A stretch of 64,000 bases of DNA from Escherichia coli (GCF_003018235.1 NZ_CP027437.1); one strand, 5' to 3'; shown: positions 1 through 14,496, counted from the stretch's first letter. The notes: a model not told the origin generated them from the letters alone. A program made the numbers and translations.

Positions 1-158
1 ATTTGTTCTACAATACCATATGACGCCCGATATTACGCCATACATAGAATATGACTACCTTGACCGTCAGGGTGTTTACAACGGCAGAGATAATTTATCG
101 GAAAACAGTTATCGCATTGGTGTGTCATTTAAACTGTAGTAGACAGGAGACAGTCACA

Positions 159-1265
159 ATGAATAAAACAATAACGGCGCTTGCTATCATAATGGCTTCA
201 TTTGCCGCAAACGCGTCTGTATTACCGGAAACTCCTGTGCCATTTAAAAGTGGTACCGGAGCAATTGATAACGACACTGTCTACATTGGTTTAGGTAGCG
301 CAGGTACAGCATGGTACAAGCTGGATACACAGGCCAAAGATAAAAAATGGACAGCGTTAGCTGCATTCCCTGGTGGGCCGAGAGATCAAGCAACCTCTGC
401 ATTTATTGATGGTAATCTGTATGTGTTTGGCGGCATTGGCAAAAACAGCGAGGGCTTGACTCAGGTATTTAATGACGTACACAAATACAACCCCAAAACC
501 AATAGCTGGGTTAAATTGATGTCGCACGCGCCGATGGGCATGGCGGGCCATGTGACTTTTGTACACAACGGCAAGGCTTATGTTACTGGCGGTGTTAACC
601 AGAATATCTTCAATGGCTATTTTGAAGATCTCAACGAGGCTGGAAAAGATTCAACCGCTATAGATAAAATCAACGCCCACTATTTTGACAAAAAAGCAGA
701 AGATTATTTCTTCAATAAGTTTCTGTTGTCTTTTGATCCCTCAACACAGCAATGGAGTTACGCTGGCGAATCTCCCTGGTACGGAACGGCTGGTGCGGCG
801 GTTGTGAATAAAGGTGATAAAACCTGGCTTATTAATGGCGAAGCCAAACCAGGATTGCGAACGGATGCCGTATTTGAACTTGATTTCACCGGTAATAATT
901 TAAAATGGAATAAGCTTGCTCCCGTCTCATCACCAGATGGCGTCGCTGGCGGTTTTGCAGGCATGAGCAATGACTCACTGATATTTGCCGGAGGGGCCGG
1001 ATTCAAAGGGTCACGGGAAAATTACCAAAACGGTAAGAACTATGCGCATGAAGGCCTGAAAAAATCATATAGCACTGATATTCATCTTTGGCATAACGGG
1101 AAATGGGATAAATCTGGTGAATTATCGCAAGGTCGGGCCTACGGAGTATCATTGCCCTGGAATAATAGTTTATTAATTATTGGCGGTGAAACTGCAGGCG
1201 GCAAAGCGGTGACGGATTCAGTTTTAATTTCTGTGAAGGATAATAAAGTCACAGTACAAAACTAA
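159..1265 (+). CDS. nanM: N-acetylneuraminate mutarotase NanM (YjhT), periplasmic Kelch-repeat protein
   Basis: 368-aa reading frame from ATG 159, with AGGAGA at 145-150. Signal peptide MNKTITALAIIMASFAANA. Full-length match by eye to E. coli NanM, and nanS follows as in the nanCMS operon. Confidence 0.93.
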   Translation: MNKTITALAIIMASFAANASVLPETPVPFKSGTGAIDNDTVYIGLGSAGTAWYKLDTQAKDKKWTALAAFPGGPRDQATSAFIDGNLYVFGGIGKNSEGLTQVFNDVHKYNPKTNSWVKLMSHAPMGMAGHVTFVHNGKAYVTGGVNQNIFNGYFEDLNEAGKDSTAIDKINAHYFDKKAEDYFFNKFLLSFDPSTQQWSYAGESPWYGTAGAAVVNKGDKTWLINGEAKPGLRTDAVFELDFTGNNLKWNKLAPVSSPDGVAGGFAGMSNDSLIFAGGAGFKGSRENYQNGKNYAHEGLKKSYSTDIHLWHNGKWDKSGELSQGRAYGVSLPWNNSLLIIGGETAGGKAVTDSVLISVKDNKVTVQN

Positions 1266-1329
1266 CGCTTCAGGGTCCCAGTAAAGGGGCCCTGCTATCA
1301 ATTTGTCATTTGTATTACGCGAAAATTAT

Positions 1330-2310
1330 ATGAACGCAATAATATCGCCCGATTATTACTATGTTCTTACCGTTGCTGGTCAGTCTAATGCCATGGCGTA
1401 TGGCGAAGGACTGCCATTACCGGACAGGGAAGATGCGCCTCATCCCAGAATTAAACAATTAGCGAGATTTGCGCATACGCATCCCGGAGGCCCGTCATGT
1501 CACTTTAACGACATTATTCCACTGACTCACTGCCCACACGATGTTCAGGATATGCAGGGTTATCACCATCCTCTGGCAACGAATCATCAAACACAGTACG
1601 GCACCGTTGGCCAGGCACTGCATATTGCACGGAAATTACTGCCCTTTATTCCTGATAACGCAGGGGTTCTCATCGTTCCGTGTTGCCGTGGCGGATCGGC
1701 TTTTACCGCGGGCAGCGAAGGGAAATATTCAGAACGGCACGGAGCCAGCCATGATGCTTGTCGTTGGGGAACGGATACTCCGCTATACCAGGATTTAGTC
1801 AGCAGAACGCGAGCCGCACTGGCAAAAAATCCGCAGAACAAATTCCTCGGCGTATGCTGGATGCAAGGCGAATTTGACTTAATGACCAGTGACTACGCGT
1901 CACACCCTCAACACTTTAATCATATGGTTGAAGCCTTTCGTAGGGAGCTAAAACAATACCATTCTCAGCTTAATAATATTACTGACGCACCGTGGTTTTG
2001 CGGCGATACCACCTGGTACTGGAAAGAAAATTTCCCTCATGCGTATGAAGCTATTTATGGCAATTATCAAAATAATGTTTTAGCCAATATTATTTTCGTC
2101 GACTTCCAGCAACAAGGTGCAAGAGGACTGACGAACGCGCCTGATGAAGATCCAGACGATTTAAGCACGGGATATTACGGTTCAGCGTACCGGTCACCGG
2201 AGAACTGGACGACGGCACTGCGAAGCAGTCATTTCAGCGCGGCAGCCCGTCGGGGGATTATTTCTGACAGGTTTGTAGAAGCAATTTTGCAGTTTTGGCG
2301 CGAAAGGTGA
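1330..2310 (+). CDS. nanS: 9-O-acetyl-N-acetylneuraminate esterase NanS (YjhS)
   Basis: 326 aa from ATG 1330 (MNAIISPDYYYVLTVAGQSNAMAYGEG...). SGNH-like GQSN motif. Position directly after nanM. Confidence 0.92.
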   Translation: MNAIISPDYYYVLTVAGQSNAMAYGEGLPLPDREDAPHPRIKQLARFAHTHPGGPSCHFNDIIPLTHCPHDVQDMQGYHHPLATNHQTQYGTVGQALHIARKLLPFIPDNAGVLIVPCCRGGSAFTAGSEGKYSERHGASHDACRWGTDTPLYQDLVSRTRAALAKNPQNKFLGVCWMQGEFDLMTSDYASHPQHFNHMVEAFRRELKQYHSQLNNITDAPWFCGDTTWYWKENFPHAYEAIYGNYQNNVLANIIFVDFQQQGARGLTNAPDEDPDDLSTGYYGSAYRSPENWTTALRSSHFSAAARRGIISDRFVEAILQFWRER

Positions 2311-2317
2311 GCGTTCA

Positions 2318-2518
2318 TTAATTTGATTTATTTGCATCCATTAGCGCTTTTAACTGCTCCGGCGTAAACGGTGGTTTGCGTCGGTGCAACATCGCATGGC
2401 AATTAGGGCACACAGGAAGCAAATCATTAACTGGATCCAGCTGGTAATCCTCTTTAATGGCTGAAAGCGGCACCAGGTGATGCACATTAAGCAATTTCAG
2501 AACCGCATGCTCATACAT
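2318..2518 (-). pseudogene. HNH endonuclease remnant (C-terminal HNH half only)
   Basis: 66-aa ORF with HHLVPLS...NDLLPVCPNCHAMLH, which is the second half of an HNH motif. The usual upstream Cys pair and N-terminal domain are absent and no ORF continues upstream. Its stop lies 7 nt from the nanS stop, in convergent orientation. Confidence 0.5.
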
Positions 2519-2655
2519 ATTTCCCCCTAAGTTTGCTCACTGCCTTTAATTTATGTCACAGGCAATGTAATTCACCTGAAGCTCATCTTGAATCTGTCCT
2601 TCTACTTAGTCATTACCCTACTGGCACAACCGACCTCAAGATGAGCTTCTTACTT

Positions 2656-3264
2656 TTAACGATGTATCAGAACAATCTTGCGCCGGGAGAATAGCGTTTC
2701 CGCAGACAGCTGGAATTTATATTCCGCGGCCTTCAGCTTTCGCGATTTAAGCATTTTCATCGTGATACCCCTTATTTTCCCTGACTCAACCTGTCTCTTG
2801 ATTTCGCCGGTGCTCAGCATGAGCTGCTTTTGCAAAATCGACAGCAGGCTGACCTGAAACGAACGGGAAATCCTGACGCTAACCTTGACCCATTTGCCGG
2901 GAGAAAGGCTGGCTAACCACTGCTCCTGAATGCGAAAATCAGGCCGACCCGATAGCTCTGCGTTGTTCCGCTTCAGCATCGCGATATCACAGGAAAAATG
3001 TTGAACCGTGGCTGCATCGTTGCTCATCAGCCGGTTATGAAGTTCGCGGTCAATTTTGCTGACGTGCAGGCGCGAAAATAGGGAGATATTCCAGGTGTAA
3101 TCACAGTGTGTGCATTTATAGATACTCCACACGTCCAGCACCTTCTTTTGCGAATTAATCCGAAATGCACCTGATGGCGTGAAGTCCCGTTTAATGTTGC
3201 ATGAAGGGCATCGCTTCGCAATGCGCTGATACCCCACGGGCGTGACGGTCCATGTAACTTTCAT
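2656..3264 (-). CDS. Zinc-ribbon protein, DUF1062-like (hypothetical)
   Basis: 202-aa ORF with CPSC...(31 aa)...CTHC near the N-terminus. The overall pattern resembles the DUF1062 family from memory. Not verified by search. Confidence 0.5.
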   Translation of the reverse strand: MKVTWTVTPVGYQRIAKRCPSCNIKRDFTPSGAFRINSQKKVLDVWSIYKCTHCDYTWNISLFSRLHVSKIDRELHNRLMSNDAATVQHFSCDIAMLKRNNAELSGRPDFRIQEQWLASLSPGKWVKVSVRISRSFQVSLLSILQKQLMLSTGEIKRQVESGKIRGITMKMLKSRKLKAAEYKFQLSAETLFSRRKIVLIHR

Positions 3265-3559
3265 AACCTACCTTTTTTAACCCATACAAAACCGGATCCG
3301 TACTGAACGGACCATGGATGTTTATGTATGAAAAATATTTAAGAGATATTTTTCAGAGGGTTAAAAAAAGATTTCCAACTATGCAATCCTGTCGGTGAGC
3401 AAAGAGATATAGCGAGACTATCAAAACGGCAATTATTGGGTATATGAGTTCAATCAATATTCATGATGGTTATGGCTTGTTCTATTGATCTGACACATTA
3501 AACACGGCGCATTAATTTTGTATGTTTTATGAACAACCCAACAACAAAAGGAGCGCGAT

Positions 3560-3811
3560 ATGACACAGCACGAACGGTTTTGTCAGGCCTGCGGAATGCC
3601 GATGTCCGCACCTGATGCGCAGGGGAGTAGCGATAAATACTGTGCATACTGCAGCGATAGCAACGGCAATCTTAAACCCTGGGAAGAGGCGGTATCAGGC
3701 TTGGCCAGCTTCCTTGATTCCTGGCAAAAAGTCGGTCCAGAAGAAGCACAGAAGCGTGCAAAACGTTATCTGACGGCAATGCCTGCCTGGGCTCATAAAG
3801 CGGACGAGTGA
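3560..3811 (+). CDS. Small zinc-ribbon domain protein (hypothetical)
   Basis: 83-aa ORF with AAGGAG at 3548-3553 upstream of the ATG. Motif CQACGMP...CAYCSD gives four Cys in a zinc-ribbon arrangement. Confidence 0.6.
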   Translation: MTQHERFCQACGMPMSAPDAQGSSDKYCAYCSDSNGNLKPWEEAVSGLASFLDSWQKVGPEEAQKRAKRYLTAMPAWAHKADE

Positions 3812-3875
3812 ATAACAAAGTCAGGGTGATTTAGGCAGTCTATCTTCACTCCGCTGATTCCATTAAGGAGAGCCG

Positions 3876-4267
3876 ATGTTTTCTCACATTATGCTTGGAA
3901 CCAACAACCTGCCACGCGCCATTGCATTCTACGATCCGTTGATGGATATGCTGGGGTATCCCCGCGGCGGCAGGAAGAGGAGATCGCATGGTGGGGCGTT
4001 TTCAACGGTAATAACACTACGGCACTGGGTATCAGTAGGCCATTTGATAAACAGGTTGCCACGACCCGAAATGGAGTGATGGTCGCCCTGATTGCGCGTT
4101 CTGCCGAACACATCCAGCAAGTTTCATGTGCTAGCTTTAAATCACGGTGGCACTGACGAGGGAGCACCTGGCCAGCGTCCGCATTACGGCGAAGGGTTCT
4201 ACAGCGCTTACGTCAGAGACACCGATGGCAACAAGCTGGCTTACGTTTATTACACCGCACAATCCTG
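3876..4267 (+). pseudogene. VOC/glyoxalase-family protein gene disrupted by two frameshifts
   Basis: Start MFSHIMLGTNNLPRAIAFYDPLMDMLGYP is in frame 1. The middle (EEIAWWGVFNGNNTTALGISRPFDKQVATTRNGVMVALIARSAEHIQQV) is in another frame. The end (HVLALNHGGTDEGAPGQRPHYGEGFYSAYVRDTDGNKLAYVYYTAQS*) is in a third frame. Shifts lie near 3960-3972 and near 4121 (extra T in caagttTcat). Confidence 0.8.
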
Positions 4268-4512
4268 AGAACGATAAAGCGGGGGCCTCAGCGCCCCCAC
4301 CTGAAACTAAACCGATCCCGCAGATGTCAATGAGCGTTGAACGAGTTGATAAATGCCGAGATGTCTGACTGTTTTTACGCCAGAACTCCATGGTGTGACA
4401 ACCATACACATACTCCCTTCTTGACACCTTTAAACCATTTAACCGCATGCCTCTGTCTGCCCTGCAGGGACGGCTGATGCCTGTGTGTTGTCTGGCGGTA
4501 AGGAACAATACT

Positions 4513-4674
4513 ATGTACGCAAAATCCTTTATCGCTCTCGACGGGAATGGTCGTCTGACCGGTGCCCGTACTGCGCAGACCGCCCCTTACGATCGTTATA
4601 CCTGCCACCTCTGCGGTAGCGTGCTGCAATACCATCCTGAATACATCACCGAACGCCCGTGCTTTGAACAGTAA
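4513..4674 (+). pseudogene. Short zinc-ribbon ORF, probably the N-terminal remnant of a longer gene
   Basis: 53 aa from ATG 4513 (AAGGA upstream). YTCHLCGSVLQYHPEY...CFEQ* looks like a CxxC...(H) N-terminal module. Downstream sequence is broken across frames. Confidence 0.3.
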
Positions 4675-5266
4675 CCAACACACTGACAGAGGGCGGCGAA
4701 AATGCTTTATGCAAATCTTGATGCAAAGGCAGCCAGACGAATTCGTAAGTTACGCTTTTACGTGGCAGATACTCAAAGCAGACTGGCATTGTAGCGACGA
4801 TTGCCACGGTGAACGCTATTGTATGGCATGTAGTACCTGAGACTTCAGCCGCCCAGTAGATATAGCATCATGAAAAAACTGAAATGCTTTCTTGCCAACA
4901 ACTCACTGAGCTAGTATGCCTCCACCGATGTAACAATTAGAGCAAGCGTCAAAGTGCGAAACTGCCCTCACGTAGCTGCAAGTTAACACCAGGAAATCCT
5001 GGTTCAAACACGACCAGCTCTATGTTAGCGGCAAGCAATCGTTGAACTAAACGCATATGCAGCCGGAGATGAAAGTTAGGAAAAAAGCAGAGGCTGATAA
5101 GAATTATGCACGTTGAGCTGGGATCGTAATACCCCACTTAAAATGTACAAGGGGAGTAGTCTAATGATGTTAAATACGAACCTTCAGTATTGTTCATTCA
5201 CCAATTTTCCCATATTCTCTCATCATTAATATTCTCTGCCGAATTTTATAGGGCTAACTCGCTGAA

Positions 5267-5473
5267 ATGAATGACAAAGCTTTAACCTTGAAAGATGTGG
5301 TGGCTTACTTAAAGTTGGCAGAAAAAACAGCGTATAGGTTGACTAGCGAAGGCAAATTGCCGGGATTTAAGGTTGAAGGCTCATGACGCTTCAAACGAGA
5401 GGATTTAGATATGTGGATTGAAGGTCAGAAGACTCAAAGCTACCCGAGTATCACAAAATCCAATCGTGGTTGA
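5267..5473 (+). pseudogene. Excisionase/MerR-type helix-turn-helix (HTH_17-like) gene with an in-frame TGA
   Basis: MNDKALTLKDVVAYLKLAEKTAYRLTSEGKLPGFKVEGS*RFKREDLDMWIEGQ.... The stop at 5384-5386 occupies the position of the conserved Trp (G-x-WRF motif), which fits a TGG->TGA change. Confidence 0.7.
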
Positions 5474-5666
5474 TCAAGTGGATAAACATGAAAAGTCGGT
5501 AGCCCTCAAAGGCCACTTGCCACATGCAGTGAAGCAAGCCGTTGTGCAAGCTCTACTGAAAGAAGGTGATATCGCCCGAACGTTGCTCAAGGATCCACAA
5601 GTTATGGCAAGTTATGTTGAGCTGATTTTCGACATGATGAAGCAGAATAAAAATATGAATATCTAA
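5418..5666 (+). CDS. Hypothetical 82-aa ORF (non-ATG start), overlapping the tail of the HTH pseudogene
   Basis: ORF track only. TTG start, no recognisable motif. Could be the frameshifted C-terminus of the upstream HTH gene. Confidence 0.2.
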   Translation: MKVRRLKATRVSQNPIVVDQVDKHEKSVALKGHLPHAVKQAVVQALLKEGDIARTLLKDPQVMASYVELIFDMMKQNKNMNI

Positions 5667-5708
5667 AAGATTTTGGGCTATCTATTACGTTTTAAAATGA
5701 GATAAATA

Positions 5709-8246
5709 ATGATAAATGACCATGAAGAACTAGAACTTGCTAAAGCTCAGGCAAAAGAAATATGGAAGATCCTTGATTATGTTCGAGGAGCATCACCTAT
5801 ATCTAATTATCGCTCATTAGCGTATTCAATCTTCTTCGTACGCTATCTTCAATCCAATACAGGTCAGCATTTTGAGGCAGAAAGGTTCGACTCTTTTAAT
5901 GTCATCGCCCAGTATTCCTACGATCTTGTAAACTATGCCGTTCAACTTGGATTGATTCATAGCGACGTATCTAAATTCTTAATTTATTATTTAGAAAACA
6001 CACTCCGTTCATTTGTCAATATTGATGAGTCTTTTGTTCGTTATGCAATTAGAGATGGTCTACTCAATAAAACCCCTGCAATAGCGTCGCTTTCTTTATC
6101 AGAACTGGATTTACTTTTTGCCGAGAATGAAGGTAAGTCAGGAGGTGAGTTTTATACCCCTAGAGACGTCAACTTATTGGTTAAAATATTAGGATTGAGT
6201 TATCAACCAAAGTCAATATGTGACCCATTTGCAGGTGCTGGAAACACAGCATTTCCTTTTGCCAATACTGGTATTGAAAAAGTTAGGATTGATACTCAAG
6301 AAATTAATAGAGATGCTTACTTTAAACTAGTAATAAGTAGAGTCATCAGGAAAATAGAAGGTCGAGACTATTTCGGCGATTCCCTATCACAACCATTATA
6401 TCAAGAAAATAAATATGATCTGATAGTTTCTTTCCCACCTTTTGGCATGAAAATTCCTAAAGCCACTCGAAATAATATTTACTATAAAACAAGTAATAAG
6501 TGGCTGGATATTACTGAAATCTTGCCAGAAAGTAGAAGTGATTGGTTTATAACATTATCAATGCTTCCAGCCCTTTCTGAGGGGGGTAAGATACTAGTAG
6601 GTATGTCACTTGGGGCTTTGACAAGAGCAGGCTCTGAGGCAAAGGTTCGTGAGTATTTAGTCTCTCGCGGAATTATCGAACAAGTAATTCTTTTACCTAA
6701 AAATATTTATTACTCTACGGCTATCTCAACTGTACTTCTTGTCCTCAACTCAGGAACAAGTAACATAAATAACAGAAGTATTAAATTTGTAGATGCTTCA
6801 CTGTTTTACGAGCCTGCCCGTGGTCGAAACACCCTCACAACAAAAAATATAAATGAGATCGTAGAGGCTTGTCATAAAGATGGCCGATTTAGTATTAGTT
6901 CATCTCATACCCAAATAGCAAACAGAGACTTTAATTTAGATCCGTCTCTTTATGTACGTAAAGATCTCAAAATCAGTGAGGTTTCTTTAAAAAATTTTAG
7001 AGGATACTCTGACTTTAAAGTTTCGATACATCCTTCTTTAAATGTATTGGTTGGTGAGAACGGCGTCGGGAAAACTTCGATATTAGAAGCATTAGCATGT
7101 GGCCTTGGTCCTTTCCTTACTGCTATGCCTGATGCTAAAGGAAAACTGATAAAAAAATCAGATATCCATATAAGTTCAAAAGGAATCGCAAATTATGCTC
7201 GAATATCGATTGAAACAACATCAAGTTTAAGTTGGGATCTTGTGGCAAAGGGGGTTGATGTTTCCGAGCCCCCTAAGATAGGAACATCAGCATTAACTAG
7301 CTACGCTACTCATCTTGTAGATAGTCAGTCTGAATATCCACTCATTGCTTATTATGGGACTAACCGTGCTCTTACTTCTACCAGTTCTAAAGTTGCAATA
7401 AATCCATTCGAGAAAGAAAATCGTGGGGAAGGTTATGACTTTGCTTTAGATGCTAAAGTTAACTACGGCATCTTAAAGAACTGGTTTTCAAAAATAGAGG
7501 TTGATGAGCTTCGAAAACGTGATGAACTAAAAGACCATAAATTCATTCATCCGGCTAAGAGACTTGTTTCAGAGGCTGTTTACCAGATTGTTGATCGAGC
7601 TACATGCTTGGAGTTCGACAAAAATAGTAACGATGTTATGGTTCATTGGAAAAATGAGCAGGGAGAGTGCGTAAAGCTTACATTGGAACAACTAAGTGAA
7701 GGGTATAGAAATATGGTATCCCTGACCATTGACCTAGTGAGGCGTGCTTATTTACTTAATCCTACCAAACCGAAACCGCTAACAGTTAATGGGATCGTTT
7801 TAATTGATGAAATTGAACTTCACTTGCACCCTAGATGGCAGCAAAAGATTTTAAATGATCTTACTAAGCTGTTTAAGAATATTCAGTTTATTGTCACGAC
7901 ACATAGTCCTCAAGTCTTAACAACAATCAAAGCCGATTGTATCCGTATTGTTTCCGTCAATGCTAACGAAGCAAAATTAGTGACAGGAACTACTACTTAC
8001 GGTTCTGAAAGCTCAAGAATGTTGGAAGATGTTTTAGGTGGTAACAATCGCGCCCAACATCTTGATATTGTTAAAAAACTAAACCGTTATACAGAGTTAG
8101 TAGAGGCCGACAAATGGGATACCGATGAGGCATTAGAACTCAAAAAAGAGTTATATAAATGGGGTGGTCAGACAGAAGACGAGCTTCAAAAATTAGAAAC
8201 TGATATTCGAATTCGCGAGTTCGAGCGTGGCAATGAAAAAGATTAA
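5709..8246 (+). CDS. Fusion protein: HsdM-like N6-adenine DNA methyltransferase domain + PtuA-type (AAA_15/21, ABC/OLD-like) ATPase
   Basis: 845 aa. The N-terminal ~415 aa carry an HsdM_N-like start (IWKILDYVRG...YRSLAYSIFFVRYL), GGEFYTPRDV (6141-6170), motif I DPFAGAGN (6222-6245), the motif IV position SFPPFG (6429-6446) and ILLPKNIYYSTAISTVLLVLN. The C-terminal ~425 aa carry LKNFRGY, Walker A GENGVGKT (7053-7076), LSEGYRNM, Walker B IVLIDEIELHLHP (7794-7832) and IVTTHSP. Confidence 0.8.
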   Translation: MINDHEELELAKAQAKEIWKILDYVRGASPISNYRSLAYSIFFVRYLQSNTGQHFEAERFDSFNVIAQYSYDLVNYAVQLGLIHSDVSKFLIYYLENTLRSFVNIDESFVRYAIRDGLLNKTPAIASLSLSELDLLFAENEGKSGGEFYTPRDVNLLVKILGLSYQPKSICDPFAGAGNTAFPFANTGIEKVRIDTQEINRDAYFKLVISRVIRKIEGRDYFGDSLSQPLYQENKYDLIVSFPPFGMKIPKATRNNIYYKTSNKWLDITEILPESRSDWFITLSMLPALSEGGKILVGMSLGALTRAGSEAKVREYLVSRGIIEQVILLPKNIYYSTAISTVLLVLNSGTSNINNRSIKFVDASLFYEPARGRNTLTTKNINEIVEACHKDGRFSISSSHTQIANRDFNLDPSLYVRKDLKISEVSLKNFRGYSDFKVSIHPSLNVLVGENGVGKTSILEALACGLGPFLTAMPDAKGKLIKKSDIHISSKGIANYARISIETTSSLSWDLVAKGVDVSEPPKIGTSALTSYATHLVDSQSEYPLIAYYGTNRALTSTSSKVAINPFEKENRGEGYDFALDAKVNYGILKNWFSKIEVDELRKRDELKDHKFIHPAKRLVSEAVYQIVDRATCLEFDKNSNDVMVHWKNEQGECVKLTLEQLSEGYRNMVSLTIDLVRRAYLLNPTKPKPLTVNGIVLIDEIELHLHPRWQQKILNDLTKLFKNIQFIVTTHSPQVLTTIKADCIRIVSVNANEAKLVTGTTTYGSESSRMLEDVLGGNNRAQHLDIVKKLNRYTELVEADKWDTDEALELKKELYKWGGQTEDELQKLETDIRIREFERGNEKD

Positions 8247-9021
8247 TAAGCTAGATGAGCCAAATCGGCTTGGTGTGTTCAAGGCTACTCATCCTAATGC
8301 TTTGTGGGAGAGGGATAAAAACTCAATTGAAGAGGCTTTCCGTTGTTGCATTGCCAGATATCAAGAAACTCTACAACAATTACGTACGGACCAAGGTAAT
8401 TTATGTGCATATTGTGAACAGGATTTAATGTCTGGAACTAATGGGGCATTAGATGACTGCCGTATTGAGCATTTTCATCCGAAATCTAAACGTGAACAGG
8501 GAGAACCTAATTGGGCTTTGGAATGGAGCAATTTGTTAGTTGTTTGCTGTGGCGGAAATCAAAGTAAAGTTGTTAATCCTGGGCAAAGATTTGATGCTGA
8601 TCCCAAAAATTACTCTTGCGATGTACCAAAGAGTGACAAAATTTTAGATACCATTATATTAAATCCACTTAATTTACCTGAATTAAATATCTGGAAGTTT
8701 CATCGTTCTTCGGGGCAAATTTCCGTAAATGAAGATTCCTGTTTAGAATTTGGTATAAGTGTTGAAATGGCACACCAAACAATTAAAGAATTGAATTTAA
8801 ATTCCCCTCGATTAATTAGATTTCGAAAGGCTATTCTAAATAATCTCAACATTTTAATAACAGAAAGGCTGAAGAAGGGACAAACGGTAGAGCAAGCTGT
8901 TAGATTTATTGCCATATCACTCTTTAGAAAAAATGGAGCAGGTGATTGGCCCTCTTTTTTTAGTGCAACACGATATTATTTAGGTCAGCAGGCTGAGCTT
9001 GTTTTAGCCCAACCTATTTAA
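8233..9021 (+). CDS. PtuB-type HNH nuclease (TIGR02646-like)
   Basis: 262 aa from ATG 8233 (GTG 8227 also possible). Overlaps the stop of the upstream gene by 14 nt. Motifs CAYCEQ (8404-), CRIEHFHPKS (8467- for EHFH), EWSNLLVVCCGG and SCDVPKSDK follow the CxxC...EHxxPK...NL..aC order typical of Septu and retron-Ec78 PtuB. Confidence 0.75.
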   Translation: MKKINKLDEPNRLGVFKATHPNALWERDKNSIEEAFRCCIARYQETLQQLRTDQGNLCAYCEQDLMSGTNGALDDCRIEHFHPKSKREQGEPNWALEWSNLLVVCCGGNQSKVVNPGQRFDADPKNYSCDVPKSDKILDTIILNPLNLPELNIWKFHRSSGQISVNEDSCLEFGISVEMAHQTIKELNLNSPRLIRFRKAILNNLNILITERLKKGQTVEQAVRFIAISLFRKNGAGDWPSFFSATRYYLGQQAELVLAQPI

Positions 9022-9040
9022 CATACTTTCAACTAGTTAG

Positions 9041-9063
9041 AGAGGCTGCTTTTGGCAGCCTCT
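9041..9063. terminator. Hairpin between convergent operons (putative bidirectional terminator)
   Basis: agaggctgc-ttttg-gcagcctct forms a 9-bp stem. It sits between the + strand stop at 9021 and the - strand stop at 9082. Confidence 0.55.
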
Positions 9064-9081
9064 TGCAGAGTGCAGAATCGA

Positions 9082-10515
9082 CTACAGGGGCGATGCTAGC
9101 TCAGAGAACCAAGCGTGAACTGATCTGTAAAATGTGCTGATTGACCAAAACTCACTGCATGCAGCAACTAACAGAATGACCACTAAGAGGATCACTACAG
9201 TAGAAGTCATTCTTTCCACACGGCAGTATGATCCCATCGCATCTTTTACAGGTTGTCTAGCCAGTTCCTGATAATCCAGCTCATCCAGAAATCCGTATAA
9301 TTTAGTTCTCCAGGTGGTTCTAACTCTTTCAAGTAATGAAATTGTTTGCCTATTAATATAGACAGACATTCCATAGGAAATAACTATATAAACCGCGATA
9401 GCACAAAAAACCAAAGCGTAAATATTTTGCAAACCAACTGATTTTACTGCATCCAGACTGTAGCGAATAACCAAGACACTAATTACAAGAGCCATATCTT
9501 TCCATAAGGAAGAGGACAAATCTCGGGATTGCTGAATGATCTTTTGTGTATCTTCAGCCAGCGTTTTCCGCAAATCACCCAAGGATTTCATAGTATCTTT
9601 ACCACCAGTCCTGATATGGGCCTTATACATTAACCGTGCAGACTCCAAAGCTGATGAGAGTCGAAGCATCACTCCCTCACAAAAGTTCAGGTCTGAAGGC
9701 CACTCTCTAGCCAGCTCGCTGGACAAAAACGTATGTTTCAGCTCAGTTTCATTCCCCTCTAGAAAAATCCACTTTGCCGCTTCCTGGATAATATCAAAAG
9801 CAGGTAACGCTGCCGTCTCATCGCCGAATGCTATTTTTCTGGGAGGCTTTCCCGCAAGCCCCACCATCATTTCGTCAGCAAAAAAAAGTTCATTTGCAAA
9901 ACATTTCAGCAACTCTCGGCATCCTAGCAATTTCCATATCTTGATTGCTTCATCAGTCTTCTCACTACAAGTTTCAAGTATCCAAGGGGCAATGGCATCT
10001 GGAGGAAGAAAAGTTGTTGAATAACATTTGATGATACTTTTTGTTACTGAAGGCTTAGTGATAGCTGTTGCATCACCAGCACTCACCGGCTGTATCTCCT
10101 TCCATGGATGCACATACCAACTTATTGTCTGAAAGCCTTCAGTAATAAACAGCCCATAAATATGTTTGTACCGACAGAGTTTGCTATCTTGAAGTAAAAA
10201 AGTGCGCCATCCTTCTAAGGTAAAAAGCCTCAGTATCCCCGGAATTTCATTATAAGTGATGGTAATGTAGTGCTTCTGCCCTGGGACCCCCTCTCTCGGA
10301 TGAATAACATCTCTGCTCTCATCGATAAAAACGATCTTGAGATCTTCCGCATGTACATCCACTATTTCTCCCCATAAATCAAGGGATTCACTATCCATTG
10401 TGGCGGAAATAAAAAGCTTATGGATAGACACCTGCTGGTCCTCTGTGATCACAAGGTCAGATAAATGTCGTGAGTGGCATATAGCCTTACCGATTTTTTC
10501 CAATATCGATATCAT
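9082..10515 (-). CDS. Hypothetical 477-aa protein with C-terminal transmembrane helices
   Basis: Long AT-rich ORF. The soluble N-terminal ~330 aa show no motif I recognise. The C-terminal ~140 aa hold hydrophobic segments MALVISVLVI, IYALVFCAIAVYIVISYGMSVYI and STVVILLVVILLVAACSEFW. The start ATG overlaps the upstream gene by 29 nt. Confidence 0.6.
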   Translation of the reverse strand: MISILEKIGKAICHSRHLSDLVITEDQQVSIHKLFISATMDSESLDLWGEIVDVHAEDLKIVFIDESRDVIHPREGVPGQKHYITITYNEIPGILRLFTLEGWRTFLLQDSKLCRYKHIYGLFITEGFQTISWYVHPWKEIQPVSAGDATAITKPSVTKSIIKCYSTTFLPPDAIAPWILETCSEKTDEAIKIWKLLGCRELLKCFANELFFADEMMVGLAGKPPRKIAFGDETAALPAFDIIQEAAKWIFLEGNETELKHTFLSSELAREWPSDLNFCEGVMLRLSSALESARLMYKAHIRTGGKDTMKSLGDLRKTLAEDTQKIIQQSRDLSSSLWKDMALVISVLVIRYSLDAVKSVGLQNIYALVFCAIAVYIVISYGMSVYINRQTISLLERVRTTWRTKLYGFLDELDYQELARQPVKDAMGSYCRVERMTSTVVILLVVILLVAACSEFWSISTFYRSVHAWFSELASPL

Positions 10516-11548
10516 CTGTTACCAATCCTGCAGTCACAATTACAATTCGTTTTCGCCCGTCTTCCATATTTTCTACTTCTGGTGCATTGTCTTCATCGTA
10601 GATAATGATTACATCTTCCAATGTTTCCAGTTTTCTCTTCCGGGGCTTCTGAATGTTATCGGGAATGATGCGGAAAGATTCACCTGAAATTCCTAAATCC
10701 TTTATTTTACGAAAAAAATACTTAACCAGAGGGTGTTCTTCCTCCAAAGGACCAAAAATCTGGGTCAACAATGGCAGTGCTTCATCAGTATTAAAATCCT
10801 GTTCGCCATGGCGTAAAGTTTCATAAATTTTGTTTACTCCGCTGCGCTTGATCTCTTCAGGTAGTAAGTTTCGATGCTTTTTATATACATCTTTTAATAC
10901 AGTAACTAGCTTATCGCTGAGCTGAGTTGGGTCATTGACGCGCTTAACCTGTAGAAATCGTTCAAAATAGACAGAGATGTTAGTACGTTTGCTGCGATCT
11001 CGTACGACAACTAATCCGCCCGGCAAATCTTCATTCAGCCGTACCAGTGCGATTTTCTGCATGGCTTCGGCTTTTTTAACGAAACTTTCGCGAAAGCGTT
11101 CGAGTTTAGGTACCTGAAACTCATCTCCTTCAACATCCAGCACATAACGGACTACATCTTCATTGTCATACTTAATCAACGCATACAGTTTCTCATCGTT
11201 GAGTGTATGAAGTTCAAAAAGGAAAAAAACGCCCATACTGGCATTCTTGGTATGGTGGTGAGACTGAAAATCGCTTGCCAATAAGGAGGATTGCTCAGTA
11301 AAGCAGCCGATATCGGTGTCTGCATGTTCCCTGATGATCCTCAGGATTCGCTCTGTATTTGACAACTCCTTAAAATGAAACATATTGCCACTAACTGCAG
11401 ATTTGATACGTTCCAGAAAGAAATCAACATGCTCCGGAGGGGAAATTTCGCTGAGTAAAACAGGGACTTCCAACTCACCGCCAACCACATGAAAAATCAT
11501 CCTTTTTATTGATAATGCATTGATTTCTTCATCCGTTAAAAAACTCAT
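10487..11548 (-). CDS. YejK/NA37-like nucleoid-associated-protein family member (hypothetical)
   Basis: 353 aa. Motif order resembles the NdpA/YejK family: IKRMIFHVVG near the N-terminus, MGVFFLFEL...KLYALIKYD, QKIALVRLNED and VVVRDRSKRTNISVYFERFLQV. Assigned by eye only. Confidence 0.5.
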   Translation of the reverse strand: MSFLTDEEINALSIKRMIFHVVGGELEVPVLLSEISPPEHVDFFLERIKSAVSGNMFHFKELSNTERILRIIREHADTDIGCFTEQSSLLASDFQSHHHTKNASMGVFFLFELHTLNDEKLYALIKYDNEDVVRYVLDVEGDEFQVPKLERFRESFVKKAEAMQKIALVRLNEDLPGGLVVVRDRSKRTNISVYFERFLQVKRVNDPTQLSDKLVTVLKDVYKKHRNLLPEEIKRSGVNKIYETLRHGEQDFNTDEALPLLTQIFGPLEEEHPLVKYFFRKIKDLGISGESFRIIPDNIQKPRKRKLETLEDVIIIYDEDNAPEVENMEDGRKRIVIVTAGLVTDDIDIGKNR

Positions 11549-11744
11549 TTTTATTTCTCAATATAGTGTTTATATTTACTACCGTGAGCCATCTTACCTA
11601 AGCGTAGAACGTGGCGGAAAACACGATAACATTATTGCATAGCTTACGGCGTAACTTATCCTCGCCCCAGACAGAATAAACGTCAAAATAAAATAATGAA
11701 AATATGATCGAGACAGCATTAGCTGCCCCGCTTTCTTAGACTTT

Positions 11745-12998
11745 TTACATTATTAGGGCAAAATCAAACGGACTCACCCCCTTCTCCCGATTCGCATCCA
11801 GATAATTTGCCCACCACTGCAGCATCAACCTACGCTCCCCAAGATGTTCCGCCTTATGGATGTATGCCGCCCGCACAGAGCTACGCTCCTGATGGCTCAT
11901 CTGCCGCTCCACTGCATTCCTCGACCACAATCCTGATTCAATAAGTGAACTACAGGCCATCGTCCTGAAACCATGCCCACAGACTTCCGTTTTGGTGTCA
12001 TAGCCCATAACTCGCAAAGCCTTGTTCACCGTATTCTCACTCATCGGCTTATGCGGATCGTGATCGCCCACAAAAATCAGCTCTCGATTTCCATTCATGC
12101 TTTTGATCTTTTCCAAAATAGCTAAGGCCTGCCGCGATAAGGGTACAAGATGGGGAGTTCGCATCTTCGAACCACGCTGAGAATGTTTAACACCGTCCAA
12201 CGGTTCACGCTCACCGGGGATCGTCCACATGGCCGTTTCAAAATCCACTTCTGACCAACGGGCAAAGCGCAGTTCGCTTGAACGGATGAAAACTAACAAA
12301 GTGAGTTCGACAGCCAGTCGAGTTAACGGCCTGCCGGAGTAATGATCAATGCGGTGAAGTAATTCAGGTATGCGGTTAAGCTCCAGAGCCGCACGATGCT
12401 GTCTTTTAGCAGTAGCAACCGCACCGGTAATCTCTTGCGCGGGGTTGTAGTCGATTAAGCCGCTCTGAACGGCAAAGCGCATAATCGCGGTAGTTCGCTG
12501 CTGTAAACGGGCGGCGACTTCAAGACGTCCGGATGACTCCACCGCTTTAATGGGTACAAGAAGATCCCGAGTCTTAAGCTCTGCAATGTTCCGCTTACCG
12601 ATAGCAGCAAAGAGATTATCTTCTAGGCTTTTCAATACACGAGCACTATGCGATGCAGACCACTTCTGATTACTGGCATGCCAGTCTCTGACGACCACTT
12701 CAAACGTTATCGCCTCTTGCTCCTGTTCTACCTTAACCGCTTTCTTGTTTTCACTGGGATCGACGCCGTTCGCTAAAAGCTTACGCGCTTCGTCTCGCCG
12801 CGATCGAGCATCAGCTAACGAAACTTCAGGATACTTCCCTAGCGCCAGCATCTTCTCTTTACCACCGAAACGATAACGAAGCCGCCAGTATTTGGAGCCG
12901 TTAGGGTGAACCAGCAAAACCATGCCTTCACCATCAGTAAGTTTATAGGCTTTTGCTTCAGGCTTTGCCGAACGAACCTTCACATCACTCAGAGCCAT
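11745..12998 (-). CDS. intB: P4-type tyrosine integrase (IntB-like)
   Basis: 417 aa from ATG 12998 (MALSDVKVRSAKPEAKAYKLTDGEGM...YWRLRYRFGGKEKMLALGKYP). C-terminal catalytic region contains HGFR...R...Y. Directly adjacent to leuX. Confidence 0.9.
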   Translation of the reverse strand: MALSDVKVRSAKPEAKAYKLTDGEGMVLLVHPNGSKYWRLRYRFGGKEKMLALGKYPEVSLADARSRRDEARKLLANGVDPSENKKAVKVEQEQEAITFEVVVRDWHASNQKWSASHSARVLKSLEDNLFAAIGKRNIAELKTRDLLVPIKAVESSGRLEVAARLQQRTTAIMRFAVQSGLIDYNPAQEITGAVATAKRQHRAALELNRIPELLHRIDHYSGRPLTRLAVELTLLVFIRSSELRFARWSEVDFETAMWTIPGEREPLDGVKHSQRGSKMRTPHLVPLSRQALAILEKIKSMNGNRELIFVGDHDPHKPMSENTVNKALRVMGYDTKTEVCGHGFRTMACSSLIESGLWSRNAVERQMSHQERSSVRAAYIHKAEHLGERRLMLQWWANYLDANREKGVSPFDFALIM

Positions 12999-13158
12999 GA
13001 TGAATATCCTTTCAAGGGTTCTGTGTGGGTACAAACATTATCGAACCGGGATATACCCGCAGTTGTACCCGCATCAGTAAGTTGATGTAGATTGAATCAG
13101 GTTGACTTAGGTTGAGTGAAAAAGCGAGGAAAGCCTTGCGGATACTGGATTTCAGGCA

Positions 13159-13183
13159 TAAAAAAAGACCTCAGTTGAGGTCT
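13159..13183 (-). terminator. leuX rho-independent terminator
   Basis: On the minus strand, agacctcaactgaggtct forms a hairpin followed by a T-run (the A-run at 13159-13166 on the plus strand). Confidence 0.7.
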
Positions 13184-13196
13184 ATTTACATACTTA

Positions 13197-13281
13197 TGGT
13201 GCCGAAGGCCGGACTCGAACCGGCACGTATTTCTACGGTTGATTTTGAATCAACTGCGTCTACCGATTTCGCCACTTCGGC
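13197..13281 (-). tRNA. leuX: tRNA-Leu(CAA)
   Basis: The reverse complement reads GCCGAAGTGGCGAAATCGGTAGACGCAGTTGATTCAAAATCAACCGTAGAAATACGTGCCGGTTCGAGTCCGGCCTTCGGCACCA. It has a CAA anticodon loop, a long variable arm and an encoded CCA. Confidence 0.97.
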
Positions 13282-13476
13282 ACTGAAGAGGTATGCGGAA
13301 AACGTTGTGGATTATACCTGTCGCACGCCACCATGCAAGCGCCAGCTTGCTCGCACCTCGCTAAGTGCTGAAATTTTCAGCATTGCATACAGTGATGTGT
13401 AACCTTTGTCACACTCCAGGCACCCCGCCCTGCCATGCTCTACACTTCCCAGACAACACCAGAGAAGGACCAAAAA

Positions 13477-14496
13477 ATGTCGATGATAAAAAGCTATGCT
13501 GCAAAAGAAGCGGGCGGCGAACTGGAAGTTTATGAGTACGATCCCGGTGAACTGAAGCCACAAGATGTTGAAGTGCAGGTGGATTACTGCGGGATCTGTC
13601 ATTCCGATCTGTCAATGATCGATAACGAATGGGGATTTTCACAATATCCACTGGTTGCCGGGCATGAGGTGATTGGTCGCGTAGTGGCGCTCGGGAGTGC
13701 CGCGCAGGATAAAGGTTTGCAGGTCGGTCAGCGTGTCGGGATTGGCTGGACGGCACGCAGCTGCGGGCATTGCGATGCCTGTATTAGCGGTAATCAGATC
13801 AACTGCGAGCAAGGTGCGGTGCCGACGATTATGAATCGCGGTGGCTTTGCCGAGAAGTTGCGTGCGGACTGGCAATGGGTGATTCCACTGCCAGAAAATA
13901 TCGACATTGAATCTGCCGGACCGCTGTTGTGCGGCGGTATCACGGTCTTTAAACCGCTGTTGATGCACCATATCACTGCCACCAGCCGCGTTGGGGTAAT
14001 TGGTATTGGCGGGCTGGGGCATATAGCTATAAAACTTCTGCACGCAATGGGATGCGAGGTGACAGCCTTTAGTTCTAATCCGGCGAAAGAGCAGGAAGTG
14101 CTGGCGATGGGTGCCGATAAAGTGGTGAATAGCCGCGATCCACAGGCACTGAAAGCACTGGCGGGGCAGTTTGATCTCATTATCAACACCGTCAACGTCA
14201 GCCTCGACTGGCAGCCTTATTTTGAGGCGCTGACGTATGGCGGTAATTTCCACACCGTCGGTGCGGTTCTCACGCCGTTGCCGGTTCCGGCCTTTACGCT
14301 GATTGCGGGCGATCGCAGTGTCTCTGGCTCTGCTACCGGCACGCCCTATGAGTTGCGTAAGCTGATGCGCTTTGCCGCCCGCAGCAAGGTTGCGCCGACC
14401 ACCGAACTGTTCCCGATGTCGAAAATTAACGACGCCATCCAGCATGTGCGCGACGGTAAGGCGTGTTACCGCGTGGTTCTGAAAGCCGACTTCTGA
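13477..14496 (+). CDS. ahr: NADPH-dependent aldehyde reductase Ahr (YjgB), Zn-dependent ADH family
   Basis: 339 aa from ATG 13477 ([24 protein letters not shown]...GICHSDL...GHEVIG). Confidence 0.95.

Follow-up and report, generated by a model that had tools for sequence, protein, structure and literature searches.

A Septu-type gene pair in Escherichia coli with an HsdM-derived, probably non-catalytic N-terminal module and a likely origin on type I restriction-modification operons

The Septu system pairs PtuA, an ABC ATPase, with PtuB, an HNH nuclease (Doron 2018; structures 8EE4/8EEA), and reports on this complex describe a PtuA oligomer that binds PtuB and regulates its nuclease (Li et al. 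2024; bioRxiv 10.1101/2024.10.26.620412). Two subtypes are given in the PADLOC paper, type I and the retron-linked type II, the latter corresponding to retron type I-A (Ec78/Eco7 and Ec83), which has the same PtuA/PtuB effector. In retron-Eco7, PtuAB is a toxin neutralized by bound reverse transcriptase (RT) and multicopy single-stranded DNA (msDNA), and it is freed when a phage nuclease cuts the msDNA (PMC12640716); another report has this PtuAB depleting tRNA-Tyr (PMC11555353). Here we describe a Septu-type locus at positions 5709-9021 of a 64,000-nucleotide stretch of Escherichia coli DNA (GCF_003018235.1, NZ_CP027437.1; hereafter the window), in which PtuA is joined in a single polypeptide to a module derived from HsdM of type I restriction-modification (R-M) systems.

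Septu embedded in Hma and defense genes embedded in type I R-M systems are known themes, and three further systems bear on the comparison. PrrC is held latent by a type I enzyme and fires upon its block by T4 Stp (bioRxiv 10.1101/2023.04.06.535777; 10.1101/2024.01.29.577857), PARIS fires on Ocr (bioRxiv 10.1101/2024.01.29.577857), and in Ronin (HsdM-HsdS-RonA; Silas et al. 2023 preprint) HsdM-HsdS is a decoy for Ocr/ArdA, independent of HsdM catalysis (bioRxiv 10.1101/2023.04.06.535777).

The fusion gene occupies 5709-8246 on the plus strand, begins with ATG, and encodes 845 amino acids. The ptuB gene (262 amino acids, plus strand, from the ATG at 8233 to 9021 within an open frame spanning 8227-9021) starts 14 nt inside it, as the stop codon of the fusion gene lies at 8244-8246. 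A sequence-only reading of this DNA had reported these frames, the overlap, and a series of motifs, all of which were reproduced in the open reading frame (ORF) listing of the window and in the translations. They are GGEFYTPRDV, DPFAGAGN, SFPPFG, and ILLPKNIYYSTAIS in the methylase part, LKNFRGY, GENGVGKT, LSEGYRNM, IVLIDEIELHLHP, and TTHSP in the ATPase part, and CAYCE, RIEHFHPKS, EWSNLLVVCCGG, and SCDVPKSDK in the ptuB product. The public annotation of the fusion protein is 'N-6 DNA methylase' only. The assignment made in that reading, namely an HsdM-like region, a PtuA-type ATPase, and a PtuB/TIGR02646 HNH protein, agrees with the matches obtained from Pfam, PADLOC, NCBIfam, PDB, and Foldseek, and each of the Pfam and TIGRFAM families it had expected (N6_Mtase, AAA_15/AAA_21, and TIGR02646) was matched.

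The pair is a Septu-type two-gene effector consisting of a PtuA ABC ATPase and a PtuB HNH nuclease. Residues 420-845 of the fusion protein (6966-8246, plus strand, including the stop codon) constitute PtuA; the PADLOC PtuA profile is covered over positions 1-435 of 436 at residues 420-843 (4.7e-106), and Pfam AAA_15, AAA_21, AAA_23, and SMC_N match residues 421-750. The PDB entry 8ee4 (PtuA) matches the fusion protein with 3.9e-39, PtuA of retrons Ec83 and Ec78 also match, and in Foldseek searches PtuA structures superpose on the AlphaFold2 (AF2) model of the fusion protein (predicted local distance difference test, pLDDT, 81.5; predicted template modeling score, pTM, 0.77) with template modeling (TM) scores of 0.74-0.78. 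Walker A (GENGVGKT, with K455 encoded at 7071-7073), the signature LSEGYRNM, Walker B (IVLIDEIE), and the H-loop TTHSP are all present, and K455, D700, E701, and H732 are invariant across 23 sequences. The ptuB product (8233-9021, plus strand) matches PADLOC PtuB (1.9e-100) and TIGR02646 (83.6 bits, above the cutoff of 52.15), and the HNH protein of retron Ec83 (9e8z_E) matches it with 2.5e-23 and with the catalytic His aligned; CxYCE, EH(F/Y)xPK, and NL are invariant in 19 PtuBs.

The C-terminal tail of PtuA takes two forms within the family, 'WGGQTE..LETDIRIREFE' and 'LTDGTEPML..ADLAIKRVNW' (alignment A1, columns 960-1020), which track two PtuB subtypes, a long one with an 'EAFRCC..RYQETQQQLR' insert and a short one. 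Such co-variation is consistent with an interface between the PtuA C-terminal domain and PtuB.

The locus thus shares with Septu type I an overlapping two-gene operon of a PtuA ATPase and a TIGR02646 PtuB without an RT, the PtuA fold, and the co-variation of the PtuA tail with the PtuB subtype, and the PADLOC models would call the window pair Septu type I. In contrast to canonical PtuA, which has about 450-550 amino acids and no such extension, the window PtuA carries a 419-residue HsdM-derived N-terminal module, and the fusion pair is far more often linked to type I R-M genes than plain PtuA (58% versus 4%, detailed below). Retron type I-A has the same effector, its Ec83 and Ec78 PtuA and Ec83 PtuB are the best PDB sequence matches, and the idea is the same, a Septu effector held latent by a distinct sensor or antitoxin module to which it is coupled, whereas the sensor proposed for the window locus would be a covalently fused protein domain. 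Assignment of the locus to retron type I-A was considered and rejected: no RT ORF was found in the island, an Rfam scan of 1-14000 for a retron msr/msd RNA returned a tRNA-Leu only, and the equivalog scores are below their cutoffs (NF041760 PtuA, 329 bits against 500; NF041761 PtuB, 127 against 150).

The methylase module, which the sequence-only reading had called complete-looking, is not complete. Pfam N6_Mtase matches residues 137-418 (4e-42), which form an HsdM-like Rossmann methyltransferase fold encoded at 6117-6962 on the plus strand, EcoR124 HsdM (7bst_D) matches the module with 3.8e-30, and Foldseek matches the fusion model to HsdM 3lkd_A with a TM score of 0.64. However, the score against NCBIfam hsdM (TIGR00497) is 122 bits, half of the 242.75 cutoff, and HsdM_N (PF12161) was not found in the fusion protein by Pfam, while the genuine HsdMs encoded next to other members do match it. 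As judged from the alignment with canonical HsdMs and the AF2 model, residues 1-136 (5709-6116, plus strand) are a short, all-helical domain, a reduced counterpart of the HsdM N-terminal domain in which W19, R26, and G27 are conserved. The alignment to EcoR124 HsdM stops at its residue 475 of 520 and, because PtuA starts at residue 420, directly after the methyltransferase core, the HsdS-binding C-terminal region of HsdM is absent. Motif IV deviates as well, reading S-F242-P-P-F versus the canonical (N/D)PP(Y/F); in the alignment to the sequence of the solved structure, F242 (codon 6432-6434) stands opposite the Asn of NPPY in EcoR124 HsdM.

The same position is altered in nearly all relatives. 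Using a family alignment of 23 members with canonical HsdMs and a motif tally over 78 fusion sequences, we found the catalytic Asn/Asp of motif IV missing in 77 of the 78; the residue is mostly F, in a few cases L, I, or C, and Asn once, in the divergent member P0067, which is the sole one with NPPF. Undibacterium members have I or M at the aromatic position of the motif. NPPF/Y is present in about 80% of the 143 nearest HsdM relatives from a library of 1.8 billion proteins. The SAM (S-adenosylmethionine)-binding motifs X (GEFYTP), I (DPFAGxG), II (TQE), and III (GDS) are kept across the family, and the PP dipeptide and the aromatic residue after it are retained.

In amino-methyltransferases, the (D/N/S)PP(Y/F/W) residue contacts the target amino group, and because of this role we infer a SAM-binding, non-catalytic domain. 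As Asn is replaced by Phe, and both a specificity domain and the tail that binds HsdS are lacking, the module would no longer methylate DNA, and it probably still binds SAM. It is under purifying selection, with a ratio of nonsynonymous to synonymous substitution rates (dN/dS) of about 0.14 for the module, comparisons of solo copies included. Among close relatives, the values by segment are 0.18-0.30 for residues 1-136, 0.09-0.18 for residues 137-418, and 0.06-0.08 for PtuA; pairs with the L082 copy were left out of this set, as internal indels at equal length cause misalignment.

The fusion family comprises 68 clusters at 90% identity, whose proteins have 841-852 amino acids and are 42-100% identical. 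Its hosts are Enterobacterales, Vibrionaceae, Shewanella, Pseudoalteromonas, Aeromonas, and the betaproteobacterium Undibacterium. At 50% identity the proteins fall into 4 fusion clusters, after which the scores drop from 529 to 196 bits, where ordinary HsdMs begin. Klebsiella pneumoniae commonly carries the fusion, but among E. coli it is rare, with 2 of 5426 complete genomes positive; the full-length protein has no match in the plasmid and phage collections searched. Every locus examined has a PtuB gene after the fusion gene.

The gene order around these loci ties the family to type I R-M operons. The fusion gene and ptuB lie directly 3' of hsdR, on the same strand, behind a complete hsdM-hsdS-hsdR operon in 14 of 24 distinct loci (58%), which come from Klebsiella, Shewanella, Pseudoalteromonas, Vibrio, Undibacterium, and metagenomes, whereas type I genes occur within 8 kb of unfused PtuA in 3 of 79 control loci (4%; Fisher p=1.4e-8). 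The control loci derive from a full-length-alignment contig scan that picked PtuA peptides and yielded one fusion locus besides these 79, and the fusion loci were gathered by N-terminal-only alignment in metagenomes and by exact-protein look-ups; as the HsdM, HsdS, and HsdR queries were proteobacterial, linkage in distant phyla may be under-counted. The remaining 10 of the 24 loci, the window included, have no adjacent type I system, and such solo copies are found in Yersinia and Aeromonas, among others. The hsdR stop codon overlaps the fusion start (TGATG) in three lineages. The closest unfused PtuA, from Oceanospirillum (L004, 37% identity), is among the three linked control loci; it is found in the order hsdM-hsdS-hsdR-ptuA-ptuB and, because it shows the same synteny, the type I linkage is probably older than the fusion. 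The type I systems that precede fusion proteins of 91-96% identity share only about 40% identity among themselves. A recent origin of the fused module by duplication of the neighboring hsdM was considered and rejected, since the adjacent HsdMs score only 58-133 bits against the fused-module profile and rank below about 140 unrelated HsdMs.

The fusion-ptuB pair probably evolved at the 3' end of type I R-M operons, as their final two cistrons and often translationally coupled to hsdR, and mostly still resides there. Overall, we consider it at least highly probable that the locus is a Septu system that arose on type I operons and whose HsdM-derived N-terminal module is non-catalytic.

Type IV restriction genes are frequent companions of the fusion in its type I operons, which form composite type I/IV islands. 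GmrSD lies between two hsdM genes in Shewanella and Undibacterium (L082 586-2349; L084 205-2391), and in Vibrio parahaemolyticus (L091 4274-7995) a DpnI_C-McrB gene and McrC are found between hsdR and the fusion gene.

The window copy is an orphan produced by deletion, with both ORFs intact. A metagenomic island (L098), 93% identical to window 5441-13241 and with a 95% identical integrase, has the order HTH (helix-turn-helix) gene, hsdM, hsdS, hsdR, fusion gene, ptuB. By blastn, window 5179-5442 corresponds to L098 3046-3309, just 5' of hsdM, and window 5441-13241 to L098 9730-17533, so that the window junction ...AAAGCTA|CCCGAG... at about 5441/5442 joins two distant points of L098. Relative to L098, about 6.4 kb containing hsdM, hsdS, and most of hsdR have been lost; homology to the Klebsiella island (95.5% at the DNA level) likewise starts at window 5441. 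What remains of hsdR is its 3' end, the last 74 codons, within an 82-amino acid ORF at 5418-5666 on the plus strand, which is 91% identical over 74 amino acids to the C-terminus of L098 HsdR (blastp, 3e-48). No other HsdS or HsdR match was found in the 64-kb window. The sequence-only reading was thus correct that the island has no intact HsdS or HsdR, and the reason is deletion; their absence is not a design feature of the system. The fusion and ptuB products remain 96% and 95% identical to their Klebsiella counterparts, with dN/dS of 0.08-0.3.

An hsdR 3' relic 5' of the fusion gene is present in 7-8 of the 10 unlinked loci, with equivalent relics in L002, L087, L100, L101, L105, and L108. 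A Klebsiella ORF of 146 amino acids, 'orf146' (L094 7518-7958), lies between hsdR and the fusion gene, with a related stretch at L112 5386-5598. It is a chimera whose C-terminal 80 amino acids are the tail of a different, older hsdR, which means that the type I cassettes upstream have been exchanged while the hsdR tail, the fusion gene, and ptuB stayed together as a constant module. We considered 'orf146' and the 82-amino acid ORF as a third component, on account of a weak PADLOC PDC-S15 match, and rejected them, as they have no family match and their conserved part is the hsdR 3' end.

Upstream of the relic, the window has a truncated HTH_17 gene of the excisionase/AlpA type (5267-5386, plus strand; Pfam HTH_17, 1.7e-07), annotated in RefSeq as a 39-amino acid 'helix-turn-helix transcriptional regulator'. 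A TGG codon has become TGA at 5384-5386, and an intact homolog of 58 amino acids stands upstream of hsdM in L098, where it may be the controller of the type I operon. The L122 locus (Pseudoalteromonas sp. S1609) carries an HTH_3/31 gene at the equivalent place. A DNA alignment of nine loci further revealed a conserved element of about 45 nt (window 5600-5640, plus strand) inside the hsdR 3' end. Its -35-like box is TCGACA at 5629-5634 in the window and TTGACA in most relatives, and the element persists even in Aeromonas, which has no hsdR relic ORF left. This candidate promoter or operator is plausibly the pair's own promoter, which may be why every copy keeps the hsdR-tail stretch. A generic promoter and terminator scan gave 11 sites, with 11.4 expected, and reported neither a strong promoter nor this element.

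The AT-rich tRNA island noted in the sequence-only reading is evident in the composition, with a guanine-plus-cytosine (GC) content of 0.36-0.39 over the region versus 0.50-0.55 in the flanks, and in the P4-type integrase gene (11745-13034, minus strand) next to tRNA-Leu(CAA) (13197-13281). The insertion point is the E. coli leuX site, adjoining nanM/nanS. A direct repeat of the tRNA 3' end, as expected of an attachment site, was sought and none was found, leaving the left boundary of the island undefined. On that side, window 3300-5100 has a GC content of about 0.5 and short ORFs only, which suggests decayed island DNA, and window 3958-4630 differs from E. coli CFSAN018748 (L001 7275-8531), which has the IS3-family element ISEc31 where the window carries about 670 bp of other sequence. 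Two overlapping minus-strand genes, the other candidate defense operon of the sequence-only reading, lie between ptuB and the integrase gene and accompany the island in L097 and L098. The product of 9082-10515 (477 amino acids) is without a Pfam, NCBIfam, or PADLOC match, and that of 10487-11548 is a 353-amino acid NA37/NdpA-like nucleoid-associated protein (1.3e-12).

Fusions of ABC ATPases to type I subunits are not confined to this family. In P0069 and four further clusters from Photobacterium, Vibrio, and Pseudoalteromonas (849-878 amino acids, 42-61% identity), a complete HsdS with two target recognition domains (TRDs) is fused to a complete PtuA; examples are L092 8001-10550 (Photobacterium carnosum) and L122 8001-10559. 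The gene order in two divergent genomes is hsdM, HsdS::PtuA, ptuB, (KAP NTPase), hsdR, and HsdS::PtuA appears to be the operon's own and only specificity subunit, that is, Septu built into a type I enzyme. The independent fusion P0090 (774 amino acids; L116 752-3639 and L117 913-3800, both metagenome contigs) joins an HsdM-like domain to AAA_21, has lost the Asn of motif IV (S-I-P-P-F), and is followed by a DUF4276 gene; R-M genes are not visible on its short contigs. P0090 is a second example of a probably dead HsdM carried by the ABC ATPase of a two-gene system. Given the HsdS::PtuA and P0090 fusions, coupling of an ABC ATPase to a type I subunit with dispensable catalysis has arisen more than once. 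The nearest relatives include another non-canonical HsdM fusion, P0125 (772 amino acids), in which HsdM_N and N6_Mtase, with S-V-P-P-F as motif IV, are fused to a C-terminal Schlafen AlbA_2 domain.

By composition, the window locus is not PrrC, Ronin, PARIS, or MADS, although it may work like the first three. In PrrC/RloC, too, a nuclease under ABC ATPase control is genetically linked to a type I R-M operon, with a presumed back-up role when restriction is blocked. Both the ABC ATPase and the R-M linkage are present in the relatives of the window pair, and the sister HsdS::PtuA-ptuB module sits as prrC does in the prr locus, between hsdS and hsdR. However, PrrC has its nuclease fused to the ATPase, lacks an HsdM-like domain, and binds the R-M enzyme non-covalently, whereas here the nuclease is a separate HNH protein and no PrrC anticodon nuclease domain is present; the locus is not a member of the PrrC/RloC family and at most works like it. 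Ronin resembles the window locus in its use of a non-catalytic HsdM: it is a type I-derived module that serves as a sensor rather than in restriction, is often without hsdR, is found in E. coli integrase islands, and does not depend on HsdM catalysis. Yet Ronin has a separate complete HsdM and HsdS and a 61-amino acid membrane toxin instead of a truncated HsdM-like domain on a Septu ATPase, and neither an HsdS gene nor a gene for a small transmembrane toxin is adjacent in the window. PARIS (AriA/AriB), in which an ABC ATPase oligomer holds a nuclease and is fired by Ocr, has the same functional logic as that proposed below, but its effector is TOPRIM/DUF4435 rather than HNH and it has no methylase-derived domain; the similarity to AriA is weak (about 27 bits over 49 residues), and the window locus has no DUF4435 partner. 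The MAD3 model of MADS scores 40 bits, below its cutoff of 420. In a full-text literature search, no description of an HsdM- or HsdS-fused PtuA and no named system or subtype with the HsdM-PtuA fusion was found, though DefenseFinder or PADLOC updates after 2023 might contain one.

As to its function, we tentatively propose, at a little under even confidence and by analogy with PrrC, Ronin, and PARIS, that the dead HsdM module on PtuA is a sensor or decoy that guards type I restriction. The proposal draws together three features of the anatomy: an HsdM module on PtuA that is dead yet conserved, the attachment of the pair to type I operons, and the HsdS::PtuA sister family. The module would be an integrated decoy or sensor that reports an attack on type I restriction, triggered either by the binding of HsdM-directed anti-restriction proteins, e.g., Ocr/ArdA-type DNA mimics, or by SAM depletion when a phage SAM lyase acts; a trigger of the latter kind would account for the SAM pocket being so strictly conserved. 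The signal would pass to the PtuA oligomer, PtuB would be released or activated, and its degradation of nucleic acid would abort the infection. Such a sensor would act generically rather than through one docking partner, because closely similar fusions follow highly divergent type I systems, the cassettes have been exchanged, the fused domain is no closer to the neighboring HsdM than to others, and copies without a type I neighbor stay under purifying selection. That the locus encodes a bacterial 'integrated decoy' receptor, in which a dead copy of a restriction methylase on a Septu ATPase senses Ocr/ArdA-type or SAM attack, is conceivable, though we lean against this more specific form.

Several considerations weigh against a guarding role. 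The model is built on where the genes lie and on analogy. The binding site of Ocr and ArdA is the DNA groove of M2S1, the complex of HsdS with two HsdM subunits, and they may not bind an isolated HsdM-like domain that lacks HsdS. No type I system lies next to the pair in 10 of the 24 loci, so the pair can do without a neighboring R-M system, and its place at the end of operons might come from nothing more than co-transfer and co-regulation ('embedding'), without any functional coupling. A pure protein decoy would not require strong conservation of the SAM motifs, and the NPPF of P0067 makes residual or ancestral catalysis possible. Moreover, with the upstream operon and the HTH gene lost, expression of the window copy is not assured.

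Other explanations of the module can be set against the same observations. It might read DNA, flipping a base into the FPPF pocket to read m6A or unmodified A, or it might tether PtuA to DNA, in which case Septu would be recruited directly to phage DNA, independently of anti-restriction proteins. PtuAB is described as a DNA-cleaving complex in two reports (PMC11555353; bioRxiv 10.1101/2024.10.26.620412). A reader would also work for solo loci such as those of the window, Yersinia, and Aeromonas, and it fits the conserved SAM-pocket motifs and the retained PP and aromatic residue, with Phe in place of Asn presumably making the pocket more hydrophobic. However, HsdM alone is a poor DNA binder in type I enzymes, there is no TRD in the module and no HsdS partner in the solo loci, and the specific attachment to hsdR (p=1.4e-8) and the HsdS::PtuA sister family would be left unexplained. 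The sequence-only reading had suggested a methylase-derived sensor of DNA or its modification; the sensor idea fits the data, and its DNA-reading form is, in our judgment, unlikely. The same reading had put forward an R-M-like Septu, in which an active fused methylase marks self DNA and PtuA/PtuB attacks unmarked DNA. The N6_Mtase fold with its intact SAM-binding motifs and the NPPF of P0067 would suit such a role, but it is very improbable given F242, the loss of the motif IV Asn/Asp in 77 of 78 sequences, the lack of a TRD or HsdS, the low NCBIfam hsdM score, and the I or M at the aromatic position in Undibacterium, which an essential self-marking enzyme would not tolerate.

The module could also be an obligate accessory subunit of the neighboring type I enzyme and dock into its HsdM2-HsdS(-HsdR) complex, either in place of an HsdM or by binding to HsdR, with PtuAB kept latent through the enzyme in the style of PrrC/EcoprrI or serving as a second HsdS-directed nuclease arm at unmodified sites. 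The precedent of PrrC and the translational coupling of the pair to hsdR speak for it, as does the HsdS::PtuA family, where the fusion provides the sole specificity subunit of the operon and PtuA would thereby be physically within the methylase core; in a near-identical E. coli host, moreover, a resident type I system of the EcoAI family lies 55 kb away and could serve in trans. We nevertheless find docking quite unlikely, as the HsdS-binding region is absent, near-identical fusions follow type I systems of about 40% identity, R-M cassettes have been exchanged in front of an unchanging unit of hsdR tail, fusion gene, and ptuB, the fused module resembles unrelated HsdMs at least as closely as the adjacent one, and solo copies are under purifying selection. 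Finally, the window pair might be an inert relic, no longer expressed after the hsdMSR deletion and the inactivation of the HTH gene, and functionless in this E. coli. The 6.4-kb deletion, the TGG to TGA change, the occurrence in only 2 of 5426 E. coli genomes, and the lack of a strong promoter in the generic scan agree with this, but full-length ORFs 96% and 95% identical to the Klebsiella proteins at dN/dS of 0.08-0.3, the retained element with its -35-like box, and the intact pairs kept by several independent solo lineages make it improbable.

The findings have consequences for annotation as well as for the biology of Septu. About 70 protein clusters, which are common in Klebsiella pneumoniae, carry the annotation 'N-6 DNA methylase' or 'site-specific DNA-methyltransferase' but are almost certainly non-methylating, and relying on these annotations would make methylome and REBASE-style inferences wrong. 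The way in which stand-alone Septu senses infection is still poorly defined, and the dead-HsdM and HsdS fusions point to interference with type I restriction. If the proposed role in guarding type I restriction is true, a covalently integrated decoy would join PrrC, PARIS, and Ronin among the restriction guards, and the placement of the fusion genes behind type I operons would be explained. Should the more specific integrated-decoy receptor prove correct, Septu would have a defined trigger, the fusion would be a covalent, single-polypeptide counterpart of Ronin and PrrC, analogous to the integrated decoys of plant nucleotide-binding leucine-rich repeat receptors, and HsdS::PtuA would represent a second, independent solution.

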